Shown here one piece after another: positions 1 to 6,960 of a stretch of DNA of 17,110 nucleotides. This DNA comes from Dehalococcoidia bacterium. GTDB taxonomy: Bacteria > Chloroflexota > Dehalococcoidia > Lucifugimonadales > UBA3495. Below the pieces are notes generated by a model. It had not been told where the DNA came from. It saw only the letters and a program-made list of their open reading frames with translations, and searched no databases. Numbering within the stretch: position 1 is the stretch's first letter; the number at the start of each line of letters is the position of its first letter. Location of the stretch: contig JASLXV010000096.1 in the NCBI GenBank assembly GCA_030740155.1, positions 1-17,110 of the forward strand, written 5' to 3'. The position numbers and the translations under genes are program-made.

Positions 1-65
1 AGATCGTCGGAGCAGTGCCCAAGGGTAGACTCAAGAGCAAGGTAGATGCGGTGCTGGCTGGTTAG
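1..65 (+). CDS. trxA: Thioredoxin, C-terminal fragment (5' truncated by window edge)
   Basis: Frame from position 3 reads IVGAVPKGRLKSKVDAVLAG* (TAG 63-65), matching the typical thioredoxin C-terminus (VGAVPK.L). Only 20 aa are visible. Confidence 0.7.
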   Translation, partial: IVGAVPKGRLKSKVDAVLAG

Positions 66-85
66 GCGGCCGCCCCTCCGGACGG

Positions 86-182
86 GGGAGTGGATGGGGC
101 CCGGTGGCCCTTGCGGACTTCAAATCCGTTATGCCTCGTGAATAGCGGGGTAGGTGGGTTCGACTCCCTCGCACTCCCGCCA
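86..182 (+). tRNA. selC: tRNA-Sec (anticodon UCA)
   Basis: 97 nt. 6-bp D-stem GGGGCC/GGCCCT with 4-nt loop CGGT, anticodon loop CTTCAAA (TCA 120-122), long variable arm, T-loop TTCGACT, extended acceptor stem GGGAGTG/CACTCCC, G discriminator and encoded CCA. Confidence 0.97.
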
Positions 183-209
183 ACCTTTTTAGGCGTGAAT
201 TCATCAAGA

Positions 210-247
210 GGCGCTACTGTCACCGGTGGCGTTTCCGTTTGTTTGTT
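210..247 (+). terminator. Putative intrinsic terminator after selC
   Basis: Stem GGCGCTACTG-tcac-CGGTGGCGTT (with G-U pairs) followed by T-rich tccgtttgtttgtt. Confidence 0.45.
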
Positions 248-285
248 AACACTCGCCCCCTCACTGTTAACAAAAGTGTTAACAA
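243..285. repeat. Three TGTTAACA palindromes (244-251, 265-272, 277-284)
   Basis: Seen directly. TTGTTAACACT (243-253) and AGTGTTAACAA (275-285) also form a perfect 11-bp inverted pair. Copies 2 and 3 are 12 bp apart. Confidence 0.85.
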
Positions 286-292
286 CGCCCAT

Positions 293-412
293 CTACCGCT
301 GGTACAAATCCTTCCGCCAAGGCCGCTTCCCGTTGACCATGTAGGACAGGTAAGCCGGGGAGATTTCTAGCTCGGCAGCTATCTGCCGCAGTGATGGCGT
401 CTTAGTCTGCAT
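293..412 (-). CDS. Small XRE/Cro-like helix-turn-helix protein (39 aa, possibly truncated)
   Basis: MQTKTPSLRQIAAELEISPAYLSYMVNGKRPWRKDLYQR*, with the HTH pattern S-L-x-x-I-A-x-x-L-x-I-S-x-x-Y-L-S-x-x-x-N-G-K-R. RBS GGAGG lies 6 nt before the ATG. It is below the ORF-track size cutoff. Confidence 0.75.
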   Translation of the reverse strand: MQTKTPSLRQIAAELEISPAYLSYMVNGKRPWRKDLYQR

Positions 413-644
413 TGTTGGCCTCCGCTCGTTTTCCCGCCGCATTGACTACGTTGCCCACCTGTCAGTGGCTCCAGCAGACATTCTCGCCCCGGCCGTGCTG
501 CTTGATCGGCGTCTGGTGCTCCCGGCCAGTAGTGGGCCGGTCTGGTCTGGTTCAAGCGGAGTGCCGACCTTCTTGGCGGTGAGCTGCTTCCTGGGCGATT
601 TTCTGCCCGTCCCCCCCTGGCCGATGGAGAATCCTGCCCAATGC

Positions 645-653
645 TGCTATGCT
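645..653 (+). promoter_or_regulatory. Putative extended -10 promoter for the Nudix gene
   Basis: TG-C-TATGCT about 50 nt upstream of the GTG start. Confidence 0.35.
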
Positions 654-705
654 TTCGGTGGTCGTGCGCTTGGACGCGGAGACCCAACCGGAGGAGCCAA
701 CAAAC

Positions 706-1173
706 GTGGCAAGACTGATTTACGGCGACCGCGTCGGCAGACTTGGAAGGCTGCGTCCCGCGTGCAGCGCAACAATCTTCGACGCCACCGGGCAAAGAGT
801 GCTGCTCACCCGCCGGTCTGACAACGGCCAGTGGTGTTTGCCCGGTGGCGCCATGGACCCGGGCGAGAGTGCCGCCGAGGCATGTGCGAGGGAGGTGCTG
901 GAGGAGACCGGGCTGGTGGTCCAGGTTGGCAGATTGATTGGTGTGTACACAACCCCACACCACATCATCGAGTACGCCGATGGGAACCGGTACCAAGGGC
1001 TCACGCTGAGTCTTGAAGCAGTGCCTATCGGCGGGGAACTCTGCATCAGTGATGAGACGACCGAAATTGGATACTTCTCAACGGAAGAGATGAGGTCCAT
1101 GGACTTGATGCAACCCATCTACGAGCAGGTTGCAGATTCTTTCGCGGGCCAGGAGGCGGCATTCGTGCGTTAA
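706..1173 (+). CDS. Nudix hydrolase
   Basis: Nudix box GGAMDPGESAAEACAREVLEETG (GX5EX7REUXEEXG). RBS GGAGGAG at 690-696 favours GTG 706 over ATG 649. Confidence 0.93.
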   Translation: MARLIYGDRVGRLGRLRPACSATIFDATGQRVLLTRRSDNGQWCLPGGAMDPGESAAEACAREVLEETGLVVQVGRLIGVYTTPHHIIEYADGNRYQGLTLSLEAVPIGGELCISDETTEIGYFSTEEMRSMDLMQPIYEQVADSFAGQEAAFVR

Positions 1174-1321
1174 CGTGGGGCCGGGATAGGCGCTTCATCT
1201 TTCAGAGCGGGACACATTTCATCTCGACAAGCAATCGTTGGAAGATCCACGGTATTCTCACGCGGGGCCGTGGGCCGACGCCCTCCCCCTGGGAGGTTAT
1301 GGCAACGAAGGTTGCCTTCGT

Positions 1322-1783
1322 ATGAAAGACACTTGGCTGTTGTACGATTACTTGCGAGGTTGATGGCGGCTGCTATTGATGGGCTTTGTTTTGGGTGCCA
1401 CTCTCGGTCTCGGCTACTACTCCACCCAGGATCATCCTATGCGATACACCGTGACGGCCAATCTGCTTCTTGAAGAACCAGAATACACCGGCGAAGGCTC
1501 ACCCTCAACCGTCACATTTGCCATTGATCCGATTCGTCGATCGACCGGCGAGTCCGCAATTGAGGACTTCAGGTTGACGGTGGCTAAATTGGGCCAAACC
1601 ACCGGCTCCACCGTGCTCACCCAAGACTTTTCCATCGACATGGAACGTACCGACGAGCTGTGGTGGAAGGCCATGGTCTTCGGGAGCGCCGTCGGCACCT
1701 TGTTGGTCGTCGTCGGAGTCTATGTCTGGGAAGACGCCCGAGGGCACCGGAACCGCCGACAGACCGGAGGGGAGGATGCATGA
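1322..1783 (+). pseudogene. Wzz/chain-length-determinant-like two-TM membrane protein interrupted by an in-frame TGA (1361-1363)
   Basis: MKDTWLLYDYLRG*WRLLLMGFVLGATLGLGYYSTQDHPMRYTVTANLLL resembles the Wzz N-terminus (DYLR..WW.LL..TM..P.YTATA.LLV). C-terminal TM AMVFGSAVGTLLVVVGVYVWE. It lies near a glycosyltransferase. Confidence 0.55.
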
Positions 1784-2019
1784 CGCGGTTCGGCGAGACC
1801 GCCGTGAGATCATCTTATTGGGGTTGCTATTTGGAGTCCCGGCGGTGTGGTGATGGGTGCCCTCGGGTGCGGCTTTACTCCTTCGCCCGTGCATCCGGTA
1901 ATGCGGGTTCGCAGGTCATCCAGCCGCGGCAGGAGCCATGGGGAAAGCCCTGGGGTTAGGTGCCCGAGAGCCTTTTTAGGTTGTGCCCCGCAGCATTTCA
2001 ACCGCCCGGCGAGAGTAAC

Positions 2020-2043
2020 TGGTCTCACCGCGCCGTAACCGCC
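2020..2043 (+). repeat. 24-bp direct repeat, copy 1
   Basis: TGGTCTCACCGCGCCGTAACCGCC, 22/24 identical to 4170-4193. Confidence 0.6.
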
Positions 2044-2188
2044 GCCAGCAAGACCCGGCCAGCCGGACAGACCCAATCCGGTTGCCGGAAGGCCGGGGTC
2101 TATAATGGGTGCTGTCACACCGGCGATACACTACCCAAATTCCCCTTCAAACCTACCGATAAGAAGGGTGTAGAAGCGAGTTCCCTGA

Positions 2189-3433
2189 GTGAGTTCAACC
2201 AAACCCCGGTTCAAGGCGGCCATCATCGCCCCAACCTGCTTTTACTATCAAGCAGCTCTGTTTCGCGAATTGGCGGCCCACCCCAAGCTAGACCTAACCG
2301 TATATTTTTGCTCCGATGAGGGCCTTCTTGCGCGAGACGTCCTGGAAATGTACAAGGTCGATGAGGACTGGGGTGGAGGTGAGGAGTTTCTAAAAGGATA
2401 CCGATTCAAATTCTTGAGGAACTACTCCCTCCGGCCGTCTTATCTCAAATGGCCTTTCGGCTTGATCAACATCGGAATACTGAAAGAGATTATCCTCCGC
2501 CGGCCCGATGTCGTTGTCTTGATGTCCTGGATGAACCCGACATGGTGGATGGCTCTCGCGGCTTGTGCGCTCATGAAAATCCCCTTTTTCTACATGACCG
2601 ATGCAAACTATCAAATCGAGCGGTTTCGATCGCGACGAAAGAGACGGATCAAGCAGTTGGTTCTGGGCAAGCTGCTCTTTAGGTTGTGCTCAGGTTTCCT
2701 TTGTGCCGGAAGGGCAAACAGACAATTCTATAAACTGTACGGGGTCCCTGATCATAAATTATTTCCTTTCGTCTATTCATGGGGTTACGACCCATTGTTC
2801 AAGATCGCTGCAGAGCTAAAGCCCCAGCGCAGTCGATTCCGAAGCGAATTGGGCATCCCGGAAAACAGTCTCGTGATCTCGTACTGCGGCCGTTTGAGCA
2901 CGGAAAAGAACCTGTTCAATCTGGTGGAGGCCTACCATCGATTAGACGATGAGCGAAAATCTCTTATATTTGTTGGGGACGGTGATCTTAGACAACCTTT
3001 GCAGAATTATGTCAATGAGATCGGCGCCGGCTCAGTGCATTTTTTCGGCTTCCAGAATAGGGATCAGATTGGGAAGTACTTCGCCATCTCCGACGTACTC
3101 GTATTGCCGTCAGTTCGAGAAACTTGGGGCATCGTGGTTAACGAGGCGATGTGCTTCGGGCTACCGGTGATCGTTTCCCATCAGGTAGGCGCCGGAATGG
3201 ACCTGGTCATTGATGGCCAAAATGGTTACACAGTCGATCCAGATGAGGATTCCCTTTTCCGCAGCCTCAAGCAGATCTCCGAACTCTCAGAAGAAGAAGT
3301 ATCTCTGATGGGGCTGAGATCCCTGGATATTATGATGGAGTGGGCAAACCGAGACCTGGCCGACTCATTGGTGCGGACCATCGAATCCGTTCGAGATCAA
3401 AAATCCGGCAAGACAGCCGGGGATTCTGCTTGA
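2189..3433 (+). CDS. Glycosyltransferase family 4 (GT-B)
   Basis: YCGRLSTEKNL, FVGDG, DVLVLPS and ETWGIVVNEAMCFGLPVI (EX7E) motifs. Perfect TATAAT at 2101-2106 upstream. Visibly more AT-rich than the flanking genes. Confidence 0.95.
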   Translation: MSSTKPRFKAAIIAPTCFYYQAALFRELAAHPKLDLTVYFCSDEGLLARDVLEMYKVDEDWGGGEEFLKGYRFKFLRNYSLRPSYLKWPFGLINIGILKEIILRRPDVVVLMSWMNPTWWMALAACALMKIPFFYMTDANYQIERFRSRRKRRIKQLVLGKLLFRLCSGFLCAGRANRQFYKLYGVPDHKLFPFVYSWGYDPLFKIAAELKPQRSRFRSELGIPENSLVISYCGRLSTEKNLFNLVEAYHRLDDERKSLIFVGDGDLRQPLQNYVNEIGAGSVHFFGFQNRDQIGKYFAISDVLVLPSVRETWGIVVNEAMCFGLPVIVSHQVGAGMDLVIDGQNGYTVDPDEDSLFRSLKQISELSEEEVSLMGLRSLDIMMEWANRDLADSLVRTIESVRDQKSGKTAGDSA

Positions 3434-3678
3434 GGATAGGCCGCGTCGACGGAGTCCCTGAGCTAACCGACACCGCACCACCTCACCGGGGTCAAGACCC
3501 TCACCCATCTCCTTGACGGCCTTCTCTAGCTGCTTGGACTCGCTGATGAATCGTGAAAGGCCTTCAATTCCTACAACCGGGCGAGGGCAAAATCAGCTTG
3601 ACCATCCGTGCCATCGACGACGAGCATGGGGACGCGATTGAAGTTGAGACAAGAACCGAATAGTATCGGAGGAAGAAC

Positions 3679-4074
3679 ATGGCCCCACTGCAACCGATCG
3701 AATACCCCGATGCCCAGCCGTCCGTGCGGGAAGTCTACGACGACATCAAGCACACCCGCAACGTCGAGGACGTGAACAACTTCTGGAAGTTTCTGGCGCA
3801 TCATCCGGCCACACTGAAGCGTACCTGGGAAAGCCTCAAAGAAGTGATGGCGCCGGGCGCGTTGGACCCGCTGGTCAAGGAAATGATCTACGTCGCTGTC
3901 AGCGCGACCAACAACTGCCAATACTGCATCCGCTCCCATACGGCCGCGGCCCGGCAAAGGGGGATGACGGATGACATGCTCGGAGAGTTGATGGCAGTGG
4001 TGGGAATGGCTAACGAAACCAACGGGCTGGTCAACGGCTATCAAGTCCGGCTGGATGAGGCCCTGAAAGACTAA
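3679..4074 (+). CDS. Carboxymuconolactone decarboxylase/AhpD-like protein
   Basis: LDPLVKEMIYVAVSATNNCQYCIRSH (E..CxxC..H motif). RBS GGAGG upstream. Confidence 0.92.
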   Translation: MAPLQPIEYPDAQPSVREVYDDIKHTRNVEDVNNFWKFLAHHPATLKRTWESLKEVMAPGALDPLVKEMIYVAVSATNNCQYCIRSHTAAARQRGMTDDMLGELMAVVGMANETNGLVNGYQVRLDEALKD

Positions 4075-4169
4075 CCCAGGAATGGCTCCTCCGTTAACCC
4101 GCTATACTGTGGAGGCCGGGAGAGTAATGTCCCGCCGGGGTACCGTAGACTTACGGTCGAACTCGGACT

Positions 4170-4193
4170 TGGCCTCACCGCACCGTAACCGCC
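4170..4193 (+). repeat. 24-bp direct repeat, copy 2
   Basis: TGGCCTCACCGCACCGTAACCGCC, 22/24 identical to 2020-2043. Confidence 0.6.
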
Positions 4194-4675
4194 AGCCCGT
4201 CGCCGGGCGCCCCGTGGTAACCTGCCGAATACGGCCCCTATCCTGCCCGAGTGATGGGGCCCGCCTCAAGTAACTCTCGAATGCTGGTCGATGAAGGTCT
4301 GAGAGGCTTCACTCCGGTCTAATCTGGGGTTACGGCGTCCGCGTTCATCTTAGTAGTGGAACTAGTTTTGGCGCTCCGCTGCCAATGGCCGAGCGCCACA
4401 ATCACCCGCGTGGACCTTGGTCTTGAAGTGGAAGGGGCTTTCCGAATCGCTCTCGGTCTATCAGAGGTCGGCGCCCACGACCGCTCCGGCGCACCGAGGG
4501 AGCGCATAATGCTCTCCATATCGCCGACCGAATTATGGTCAGCGCGGCCGGGTCTTCGGTTTGTGCTGGCCGGGAGCATACGATTGTTGAACCAGCGAAC
4601 GGAGCTATGCCCGTCTCCTCTAAAACCGAAAGGGGCCGGGCATGCGGACTTCCCGGGGTAGAAAAGCGAAACTAT

Positions 4676-6228: not shown

Positions 6229-6759
6229 TTACTGCCGTACCCGTGCCCGGTGGTCAGAAATGAGACGCTCCAAGCGCCGCCGACCTTCTTCCATTAGCCG
6301 TCGAATCGCCTGTAACTCTTCCCGCTCTCCGTCGCCAAGCCGCTGTTCAATCGATTGTGGTTTGTAGCCGTAATGCCCGGCGTAATCCCGGATGCGCCGG
6401 ACCCGGCCGGCAATGTCCCCGACGCCTCGGCTTACCGGGGAGAGGGGAGCGCCGCCGGTCATCCACTGCTCGAAAACGGTGGCCTGCTTGGAGTCGTCGC
6501 ACCGAGCGCAGGCCGGCACCATGTTACCGAGGACGGTGTCCCCGCCTCGCGCAACGGGCACGACATGGTCCCACCTGCGCACGTCTCGATCGCCACAATA
6601 AACACACTCAGGTTCCCGATCGCCGTAGAAGAACCGGACCACTTCGGCCATCTCCGGTGCTCTGAATTTGTTAAGCCCGATGCCCTCGCGAATAGCCCGT
6701 TCCACGAACGAGAAGGCGAATGCCGGGGTCTGACGTTGAGGCGCGCGAGGTAGGGCCAT
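6229..6759 (-). CDS. HNH endonuclease with helical C-terminal extension
   Basis: CVYCG...WDHVVPVARGG....GNMVPACARCDDSK. RBS GGAGG 5 nt before ATG 6759. Confidence 0.9.
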   Translation of the reverse strand: MALPRAPQRQTPAFAFSFVERAIREGIGLNKFRAPEMAEVVRFFYGDREPECVYCGDRDVRRWDHVVPVARGGDTVLGNMVPACARCDDSKQATVFEQWMTGGAPLSPVSRGVGDIAGRVRRIRDYAGHYGYKPQSIEQRLGDGEREELQAIRRLMEEGRRRLERLISDHRARVRQ

Positions 6760-6960
6760 CCTGTCCTCCGGAGCTTCAAGGGTCGGCAATTGAGGCTAGG
6801 GCCACGAGAGATCGGAGCCACGATCCCGTTTATCCGTTGACGATCAATCATTACCCGGTGGGTGGAATGCCGTCCGGGCCGGGAGCTTCGGAACCGCGGG
6901 CATGAAAAGAGACGATGCTGAGGAGCTGTTCGCAGGAATCTACTGATCCATCAGATCCAG

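Follow-up and report, generated by a model that had tools for sequence, protein, structure and literature searches.

A tRNA-Sec-linked helix-turn-helix mini-gene as the probable broken half of a self-splitting integrase in Dehalococcoidia

In the archaeal elements SSV1/SSV2, pTN3 and pT26-2 (PMC7253208, PMC8371274), the attachment site of the element (attP) is described as lying inside the integrase open reading frame (ORF), on its N-terminal side, and integration into a tRNA gene separates the two parts of the integrase gene, so that int(N) lies at one end of the element and int(C) at the other. The available text of PMC7253208 describes such type I (SSV-type, 'suicidal') integrases as confined, to date, to archaea, and that of PMC8371274 also states self-splitting integrases to be archaeal only and assigns the archaeal SSV-type families to Phage_integr_3 (PF16795). 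Here we analyse a stretch of 17,110 nucleotides from Dehalococcoidia bacterium GCA_030740155.1 (the window, which is contig C96 of the 108-contig assembly of genome G000; 93.7% complete, 7.65% contamination), near the start of which a mini-gene of 39 codons, encoding a probable helix-turn-helix (HTH) of XRE type, converges on the tRNA-Sec gene. This mini-gene is very probably an int(N), that is, the detached and broken N-terminal half of a tyrosine integrase with attP inside its own coding sequence.

The family to which it belongs shares several properties with the SSV-type elements, as far as these are covered in the available text of the two papers: the position of attP and the separation of int(N) and int(C) by integration into a tRNA gene, the fact that the att site is translated within the protein, the many pseudogene copies, and the targeting of many different tRNAs by near relatives. 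The grouping of its int(N) sequences by host also recalls the hybrid enzymes described for pT26-2. Unlike the SSV-type elements as described there, the present family has a bacterial host (Dehalococcoidia/SAR202), an int(N) made of an XRE-like HTH with TGTTAACA palindromes in the coding DNA and usually with a ribbon-helix-helix (RHH) gene upstream, and an int(C) that retains the whole core-binding and catalytic unit. Its core is Xer-like and consists of Phage_integrase and SAM-like domains, with no match to PF16795 at E <= 0.01 in the longer relatives P0034, P0044 and P0050 or in three int(C) ORFs. Given the Xer-like core, the family is not placed in the archaeal SSV/pTN3/pT26-2 sequence families; together with the different N-terminal domain and the missing PF16795 match, it points to an independent origin.

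Among bacterial integrases, IntP of the myxophage Mx8 has its attP within its own coding sequence, and integration alters the gene (PMC6070905, PMC4383910). According to the available accounts of Mx8, attP sits close to the 3' end, with only the C-terminal tail being swapped, whereas in the present family the cut falls after about residue 90 and removes the whole N-terminal domain. In heterobivalent lambda-type integrases an N-terminal arm-binding domain precedes the core-binding and catalytic domains, and short sites recur beside the core site. The present family is similar in having an extra, putatively DNA-binding N-terminal domain and short repeated sites near the core but, unlike in lambda Int, this domain is a probable HTH and the candidate arm sites are palindromes inside the integrase ORF. 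As in XRE/Cro/CI regulators (HTH_3, HTH_31), the recognition-helix region matches profile positions 11-34, whereas the present domain has three helices and not five, scores below the cut-offs and does not occur as a free-standing gene in the free element. Besides Mx8, we found no paper on this layout in Bacteria, and none for Chloroflexota, with subscription journals and preprint supplements lying outside the search; among papers from 2020 on retrieved with 'suicidal integrase', none was on bacteria by title. The tycheposon preprint (10.1101/2020.12.28.424599) does not mention, in its available part, an att site inside the integrase.

The tRNA-Sec mini-gene and its unsplit relatives

A search limited to proteins of greater length gave 51 matches, three of them with a Phage_integrase domain. 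The relative P0034 (323 amino acids) contains, in this order, the HTH, the peptide VVNSFVNS, a stretch with ...GGSARESNPPTPLVTRHNGFEV and an integrase, and its middle peptide corresponds to the antisense translation of the 3' part of tRNA-Sec, as is also the case for the minus-strand ORF at 62-292 of the window. In a tblastn comparison, P0034 residues 5-97 match window positions 116-394 with 71% identity (E 1.5e-37); the match ends at the anticodon loop, and where the homology to the window ends P0034 continues as integrase sequence. P0044, encoded at locus L082, is intact with 359 amino acids and has an overlapping RHH gene ahead of its ORF, and its DNA holds what by eye is an antisense tRNA-Lys(ttt)-like half, while L087 is a third unsplit case, with 346 codons open from the start of the match.

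The complementary arrangement was looked for at the integrated copies, where a second copy of the tRNA 3' part is present in 7 of 29 genome loci. At four of these seven (L046, L047, L054 and L061, with elements of 3.2-9.3 kb) an integrase lies beside it, and in all four the frame of the integrase ORF in the left repeat is the frame of the HTH tail in the right repeat. L047 has a 100-nucleotide direct repeat around a 3.8-kb element, the repeat running from the tRNA-Lys 3' half through the spacer into the beginning of the next tRNA. In genome G000 itself, contig C58 carries the displaced positions 29-76 of tRNA-Lys(ctt) followed by an integrase N-terminus, apparently (by eye) in the HTH-tail frame of the tRNA-Lys(ctt) copy on C92. 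The direct repeats end at tRNA positions ~25-31, which places the crossover in the anticodon stem-loop.

The reading frames point in the same direction. The HTH frame is open from the Val-Asn motif past the anticodon at 28 of the 29 genome loci, against 7 and 2 of 29 for the other two frames, and at 30 of 31 distinct metagenome loci, against 4 and 0. At the paralogous loci the stop mostly lies 13-26 nucleotides past the anticodon, in the D-arm. The first-pass annotation described a frame open antisense through the whole tRNA; this is correct for the window, but it is not a conserved property, and selection accounts for the open frame only up to the anticodon loop. The part at 62-115, which is host tRNA sequence with no counterpart in P0034, is open by chance, and the crossover in the window would be placed near 114-116.

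All the coordinates first reported for the mini-gene, its TAG-ATG junction, the open frame, the repeats and tRNA-Sec hold up, and the features of the locus can be listed as follows.

86-182, plus strand: tRNA-Sec, anticodon TCA at 120-122, the integration target (ARAGORN; Rfam RF01852)
114-182, no strand: predicted att identity block, the element-supplied 3' part of tRNA-Sec up to the anticodon loop (divergence of metagenome contigs L085/L086 at 114; P0034 match)
183-243, no strand: spacer from the tRNA 3' end to the palindromes, whose minus strand is part of the predicted int(N) linker (P0034 homology)
244-284, no strand: three TGTTAACA palindromes (244-251, 265-272, 277-284), each Val-Asn on the minus strand (motif count)
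293-412, minus strand: HTH part of the probable int(N), a 39-codon ORF ending at the nonsense TAG at 293-295 (ORF, Pfam, relatives, structure models)
116-292, minus strand: frame of the probable int(N) beyond the TAG, with the Val-Asn motif and the att-encoded linker (...GGSARESNPPTPLFTRHNGFEV) (P0034 tblastn; ORF 62-292)
62-115, minus strand: further extent of the open frame, across the 5' half of tRNA-Sec supplied by the host; outside the integrase (P0034 homology ends at 116)
413-466, minus strand: leader common to the tRNA-Ala(tgc) copy on C61, including GGAGG at 419-423 (sequence comparison)

The tRNA-Sec gene scores 69.4 bits with Rfam RF01852 (cut-off 47), and was the only match in an Rfam scan of window positions 1-2500 (E <= 1). 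The 39-residue product of the minus-strand ORF at 293-412 is MQTKTPSLRQIAAELEISPAYLSYMVNGKRPWRKDLYQR; the GGAGG lies 6 nucleotides ahead of its ATG, and an alternative ATG at 442 would give 49 residues. A further ATG (290-292) stands directly behind the TAG and opens the ORF at 62-292, of 76 residues, which begins with MGVVNTFVNSEGASVNKQ. The spacer at 183-243 contains a terminator-like hairpin for tRNA-Sec (208-235, plus strand), its homologous stretch is translated in P0034, and it is conserved across tRNA-Sec-linked copies. The locus lacks the RHH gene that most relatives have ahead of the HTH.

Copies, palindromes and predicted fold of the family

Genome G000 contains five copies, at tRNA-Sec (C96), Ala(tgc) (C61), Lys(ctt) (C92), Leu(taa) (C98) and, in a divergent form, at Ala(ggc) (C65), and all four copies outside the window converge on their tRNA's 3' end and lie less than 700 bp from a contig end. 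The copies on C61, C92 and C98 have TAC at the position of the window's TAG, and their proteins go on through ...LYQRYMGVVNTFVNSE..SVNK into the antisense tRNA, to totals of 94, 91 and 118 residues, respectively. The likeness between the same-genome copies ends shortly behind SVNK, after which each has the sequence of its own tRNA locus. The int(N) cores at four different tRNAs of this genome are 87-95% identical at the DNA level, against 65-81% with same-tRNA copies in other genomes (with the exception of the same-genus tRNA-Lys(ctt) copy, at 92%). The front halves therefore group by host and not by target, a pattern that would fit either exchange between copies or recent retargeting.

The copy in the window is an orphan pseudogene, the inert fossil of an old integration, since it has TAG in place of a Tyr codon, has lost its RHH partner, and is accompanied by neither an int(C) nor a second att in the assembly. 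The first-pass suggestion of a longer protein in which a nonsense change turned a Tyr codon into the TAG is supported, with TAC in the three same-genome paralogues and TAC or TAT in 12 other tRNA-Sec-linked copies; a reading of TAG as a sense codon was set aside for the same reason. L085 and L086, two independent metagenome contigs, match window positions 114-4393 at 99.7% identity and have the same TAG, which is genuine and confined to the lineage of the window. Both contigs leave the window sequence at 114, to continue with non-coding DNA and then, by eye, a protein-kinase gene. In the strains they represent, a further insertion in tRNA-Sec has displaced the stub, which also accounts for the break of the assembly inside this tRNA. 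Early stops were found in six of the eight metagenome tRNA-Sec-linked copies aligned, and a 5'-truncated tRNA-Sec copy, of which only the 3' part is kept, is present in G001, a genome of the same genus. In this genome, the NUDIX and glycosyltransferase block that occupies 617-3440 of the window is inverted and lies ~13 kb from tRNA-Sec (G001:C171; L074 1006-3072), indicating that the region beside tRNA-Sec has been rearranged between close relatives.

Among 40 relatives, strong matches were present in five genomes, with a tRNA gene ~35-110 nucleotides from the match at seven of the eight strong loci; of these seven, L013 has a co-directional tRNA, and at the eighth (L019) only the 3' half of a tRNA-Leu(taa) was recognised, by eye. 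A scan of one genome per species gave 44 loci, of which 36 reach E <= 2e-9, every one of them with a title naming Dehalococcoidia, Chloroflexota/Chloroflexi or SAR202. At 29 of the 37 Dehalococcoidia-type genome loci a convergent tRNA lies 18-89 nucleotides behind the match, while the tRNA is co-directional at two loci and absent at six. Relatives are encoded in 184 stretches of metagenome contigs, and the best 80 of these comprise 40 with a convergent tRNA, 5 with a co-directional one, 24 with none and 11 that end too early; an early stop is absent in 72 of the 80. An RHH-like motif is found upstream of the HTH in 67 of 104 loci. The family sits at no fewer than 12 tRNA species in Dehalococcoidia/SAR202, those at the genome loci being Lys-ctt, Gly-ccc, Gly-gcc, Met, Arg-tct, Ala-tgc, Ala-ggc, Leu-taa, Leu-tag, Sec, Val-gac and Pro-tgg. 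These counts agree with two expectations of the first-pass annotation, namely that a module of HTH, palindromes and tRNA recurs at tRNA genes, and that the gene is part of tRNA-targeting integrative elements. A scan of IMG/VR with the int(N) alignment returned seven weak loci (23-54% identity, in the HTH region only) and no family member, and a viral origin was dropped on this account.

The palindrome TGTTAACA occurs exactly three times in the window, against 0.08 expected, and none of 200 shuffles reached three. In the 45 residues behind GKRPW, taken over 92 distinct loci, Val-Asn pairs are encoded by GTTAAC in 219 of 239 instances, whereas for control Val-Asn pairs just ahead of GKRPW this is the case in 2 of 37, a codon control that rules out a repeat kept purely at the protein level. 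The GTTAAC sites are flanked by T at 202 of 214 sites and by A at 198 of 214, giving TGTTAACA. As GTTAAC is kept at the DNA level, the palindromes are probably protein-binding sites inside the coding region, and it is plausible that the HTH domain would bind them as arm-type sites. Five loci form a subfamily in which TGTAAACA goes with an altered recognition helix, YLSLL in place of YLSYM. An extra GTTAACA is found shortly past the crossover in some int(C) starts (L082, ~30 nucleotides; L087, ~15 nucleotides; G000 C58, at ~88,560), so that palindromes can lie to either side of the core.

The first-pass annotation had proposed a search with XRE-type HTH profiles, for which the Pfam families are HTH_3 (PF01381) and HTH_31 (PF13560). 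An HTH_3 match does exist (18.6 bits, E 0.002), but it stays below the Pfam cut-off of 23 and covers only profile positions 11-34 of 55. The AlphaFold2 model of int(N) alone has helices at residues 8-14, 19-26 and 34-55, and a Foldseek search with this model listed mostly XRE/Cro/CI-type rows, including all the top ones, although with weak values (best E 0.15, none <= 0.001); the best structural neighbours, at these weak E-values, were TP901-1 MOR/CI, a lambda-repressor-like protein, ClgR, HigA and SinR. The N-terminal domain is thus probably a three-helix XRE-like HTH, as judged from the models. For P0044, an alignment of 67 rows gave a model with a mean predicted local distance difference test (pLDDT) of 90.2, composed of a confident N-terminal unit (helices 3-10, 14-21 and 29-48), an att-encoded stretch at residues 51-80 with pLDDT < 50, and then a confident integrase core. 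Its residues 98-353 align to the XerC-like structure 4a8e_A (E 3.7e-20), with HAFRR and TRIY aligned. In agreement with this, the Pfam regions of P0044 are HTH, SAM-like and Phage_integrase; the full-length relatives and the int(C) ORFs reach 71-110 bits with Phage_integrase (PF00589; cut-off 27.1), and P0034, P0044, P0050 and the three int(C) ORFs gave, at E <= 0.01, matches to PF00589, PF02899, PF13495 and HTH families only.

Proposed cycle and alternative explanations

In the mechanism that we propose, the free element would have one ORF encoding an XRE-like HTH, a stretch with 2-4 TGTTAACA palindromes, an antisense-tRNA linker that contains attP, and the Xer-like core-binding and catalytic unit. 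The attP linker would be disordered and correspond to the antisense translation of the tRNA 3' half and the downstream spacer. Recombination in the anticodon stem-loop of a matching tRNA gene would insert the element and thereby cut the integrase gene: int(N) would remain beside the rebuilt tRNA, converging on it, with its frame entering the tRNA until a stop, and int(C) would come to lie at the opposite end, following the tRNA 3' half that was displaced. The splitting may control excision, and the disordered att-encoded linker may let the family switch tRNA targets, since any tRNA half could be swapped in such a linker through recombination between near-identical int(N) copies. A more specific version, which we put forward only tentatively and hold to be rather doubtful as a whole, is that integration is a built-in switch, producing a free HTH protein, co-produced with its RHH partner and remaining bound to TGTTAACA at the tRNA-side junction, and a silent Xer-like core at the other end. 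Excision would then need the gene to be rebuilt or complemented, and the exchange of tRNA halves by int(N) recombination would allow self-retargeting among at least a dozen tRNA genes.

Several observations weigh against the assignment of the mini-gene to a split integrase. The window copy is itself assigned to int(N) by homology. The first-pass annotation had proposed looking for a neighbouring integrase; the window has none (PF00589 gave no match on C96), and an int(C) is not to be expected at this end; a displaced tRNA-Sec 3' half was likewise not found in the assembly, where the only other match is the 141-nucleotide contig overlap with C52. The HTH scores are under the Pfam cut-offs not only for the window (18.6 against 23) but also for P0034 (20.2 against 23) and P0044 (HTH_31, 23.2 against 27). 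As compared with more than 100 split copies, unsplit forms are few (three ORFs, plus P0050, a protein cut at its N-terminus), and they are not free of defects: the N-terminus of L087 is degraded, and P0034 is without ~44 residues of the catalytic domain as compared with P0044 (alignment columns ~257-300, including the GKG.K region), so that this copy is probably inactive. The contigs that carry them are short (1.5-4.8 kb), show no terminal overlap >= 16 nucleotides that would indicate a circle, and could be junctions of tandem elements. When 1.84 billion representatives were searched, the best stretch of each of the best 150 matches began at query residue 60 or later. Three of the loci with a second tRNA copy (L055, L062 and L066) are short and without an integrase, L049 and L088 have earlier stops in the HTH frame, and the co-directional tRNAs at 2 genome and 5 metagenome loci require a flipped att. 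No joints of an excised circle or an empty site were detected in the contigs of four runs for L046:2800-8950, where the thin, contig-only cover makes the result uninformative. Finally, int(C) alone is a complete Xer-like core-binding and catalytic unit, which suggests that the split may leave the enzyme active and that the HTH part might work alone.

In the explanation favoured in the first-pass annotation, the mini-gene would act independently, as a small regulator of XRE type or as the recombination-directionality factor of an element that integrates at tRNAs; its binding sites would lie in its own 3' end, and its fusion to the integrase, in the few contigs that show it, would be incidental. 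The integrated mini-gene is indeed a separate ORF with a good ribosome-binding site, usually in an overlapping two-gene unit with the upstream RHH gene (67/104 loci), and most integrated copies are intact (72/80 in metagenomes); moreover, the GTTAAC palindromes are conserved as DNA, the TGTAAACA subfamily has a changed recognition helix (YLSLL instead of YLSYM), and int(C) is a complete Xer-like enzyme without the HTH part. What such a regulator would leave unexplained is why its frame is open past the anticodon at 58 of 60 loci, over 12 tRNA sequences (other frames, 13/120), and why both halves share a frame in all four elements in which they can be compared. Furthermore, the window ORF has no match to an excisionase-type Pfam family at E <= 1, in the unsplit forms the HTH is fused to the integrase, and the separate Xis-like HTH gene that occurs on C28 (by eye) belongs to a different, unsplit element of the genome. 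We regard a separate regulator as improbable, and the gene is better read as the integrase's own N-terminal domain, detached from the catalytic part by integration.

It is even less probable that the 39-residue product, or a product of reading through the TAG, is still made in the window as a domesticated DNA-binding protein at the tRNA-Sec locus. The TAG takes away the long third helix seen in the models, the locus has lost both the RHH partner gene and the promoter region of that gene, and a promoter scan of window positions 1-700 gave no promoter-like site; although the ribosome-binding site and the HTH helices are intact and the copy is retained at 99.7% identity in two other metagenome assemblies, the early stops in six of the eight aligned tRNA-Sec-linked metagenome copies and the 5' truncation seen instead in G001 speak against it. 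A chance ORF with chance repeats in GC-rich DNA downstream of a tRNA would be in keeping with the shortness of the ORF and with a Pfam score under the cut-off, but it is refuted by the conservation of the protein across genera and by the presence of three palindromes against 0.08 expected, and we give it practically no weight.

Implications and other tRNA-linked elements

The self-splitting design is common in marine Dehalococcoidia and, in our view, its occurrence with a Xer-like core and a different N-terminal domain in abundant marine bacteria points to an independent invention, and makes the 'paradox' of self-cutting enzymes accessible in another domain of life. The design accounts for a class of small 'hypothetical HTH proteins' converging on tRNA genes in Dehalococcoidia/SAR202, as well as for assembly breaks at tRNA genes in these genomes, and hot spots of gene gain linked to tRNAs are marked by it. 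The disordered linker encoded by att offers a possible way for the choice of target to shift rapidly.

A minority of loci (L013/L044 at G017:C6, L064, L100, L105, L107, L108, L132 and L135-L140) have the HTH ORF upstream of a co-directional tRNA, with read-through into the tRNA in the sense direction. The tRNAs at such loci are Gly-ccc, Glu-ctc and Pro-ggg/agg, and the tail of L013 contains a TTGACA...TATCAT promoter-like pair for the tRNA. These loci imply a second class, in which a flipped att would supply the tRNA 5' half. A search for the limits of the element at the tRNA-Gly(ccc) of genome G003 gave no repeat of the tRNA half within ~36 kb.

Other kinds of element are also linked to tRNA genes in G000. 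On the 5' side of tRNA-Ala(tgc) (C61:1-450) there is a different, unsplit integrase with its own ATG and repeated AGCAGATAACTGGAC-like motifs; the whole of C28 continues this element, with a small Zn-ribbon-like ORF and an excisionase-like HTH ORF, and at C3:10391-10426 positions 2-37 of tRNA-Ala are joined to DNA with a AGCAGATAACTGGAC-like motif in inverse orientation. This looks like a second type of element, which replaces the tRNA 5' half. Directly behind tRNA-Leu(taa), at the end of C103, the assembly forks into C98 (1-400), with the int(N) module, and C84 (1-900), which has a classic layout with a converging complete integrase and TTGACAGCCA direct repeats, and two different elements compete for one tRNA-Leu(taa) in the population. 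Clusters of tRNA genes of one kind are found at C77:53241-56276 (three tRNA-Thr(cgt) genes in 3 kb) and C1:22164-23931 (two tRNA-Arg(gcg) genes in 1.8 kb), and may be tandem integration scars that duplicate whole tRNAs.

The rest of the window is made up of ordinary metabolic genes (NUDIX, GT4, CMD, MFS, CrcB, URO-D, luciferase-like, two CoA-transferases and AMP-binding), and its gene content shows no element functions besides a single HNH endonuclease ORF (PF01844, E 4e-8), which lies amid these genes at 6229-6789 on the minus strand. The contig ends of G000 overlap by exactly 141 nucleotides, and about one third of its 49 tRNA genes lie less than 500 bp from a contig end, which suggests that tRNA-linked elements are a main cause of assembly breaks in this genome.

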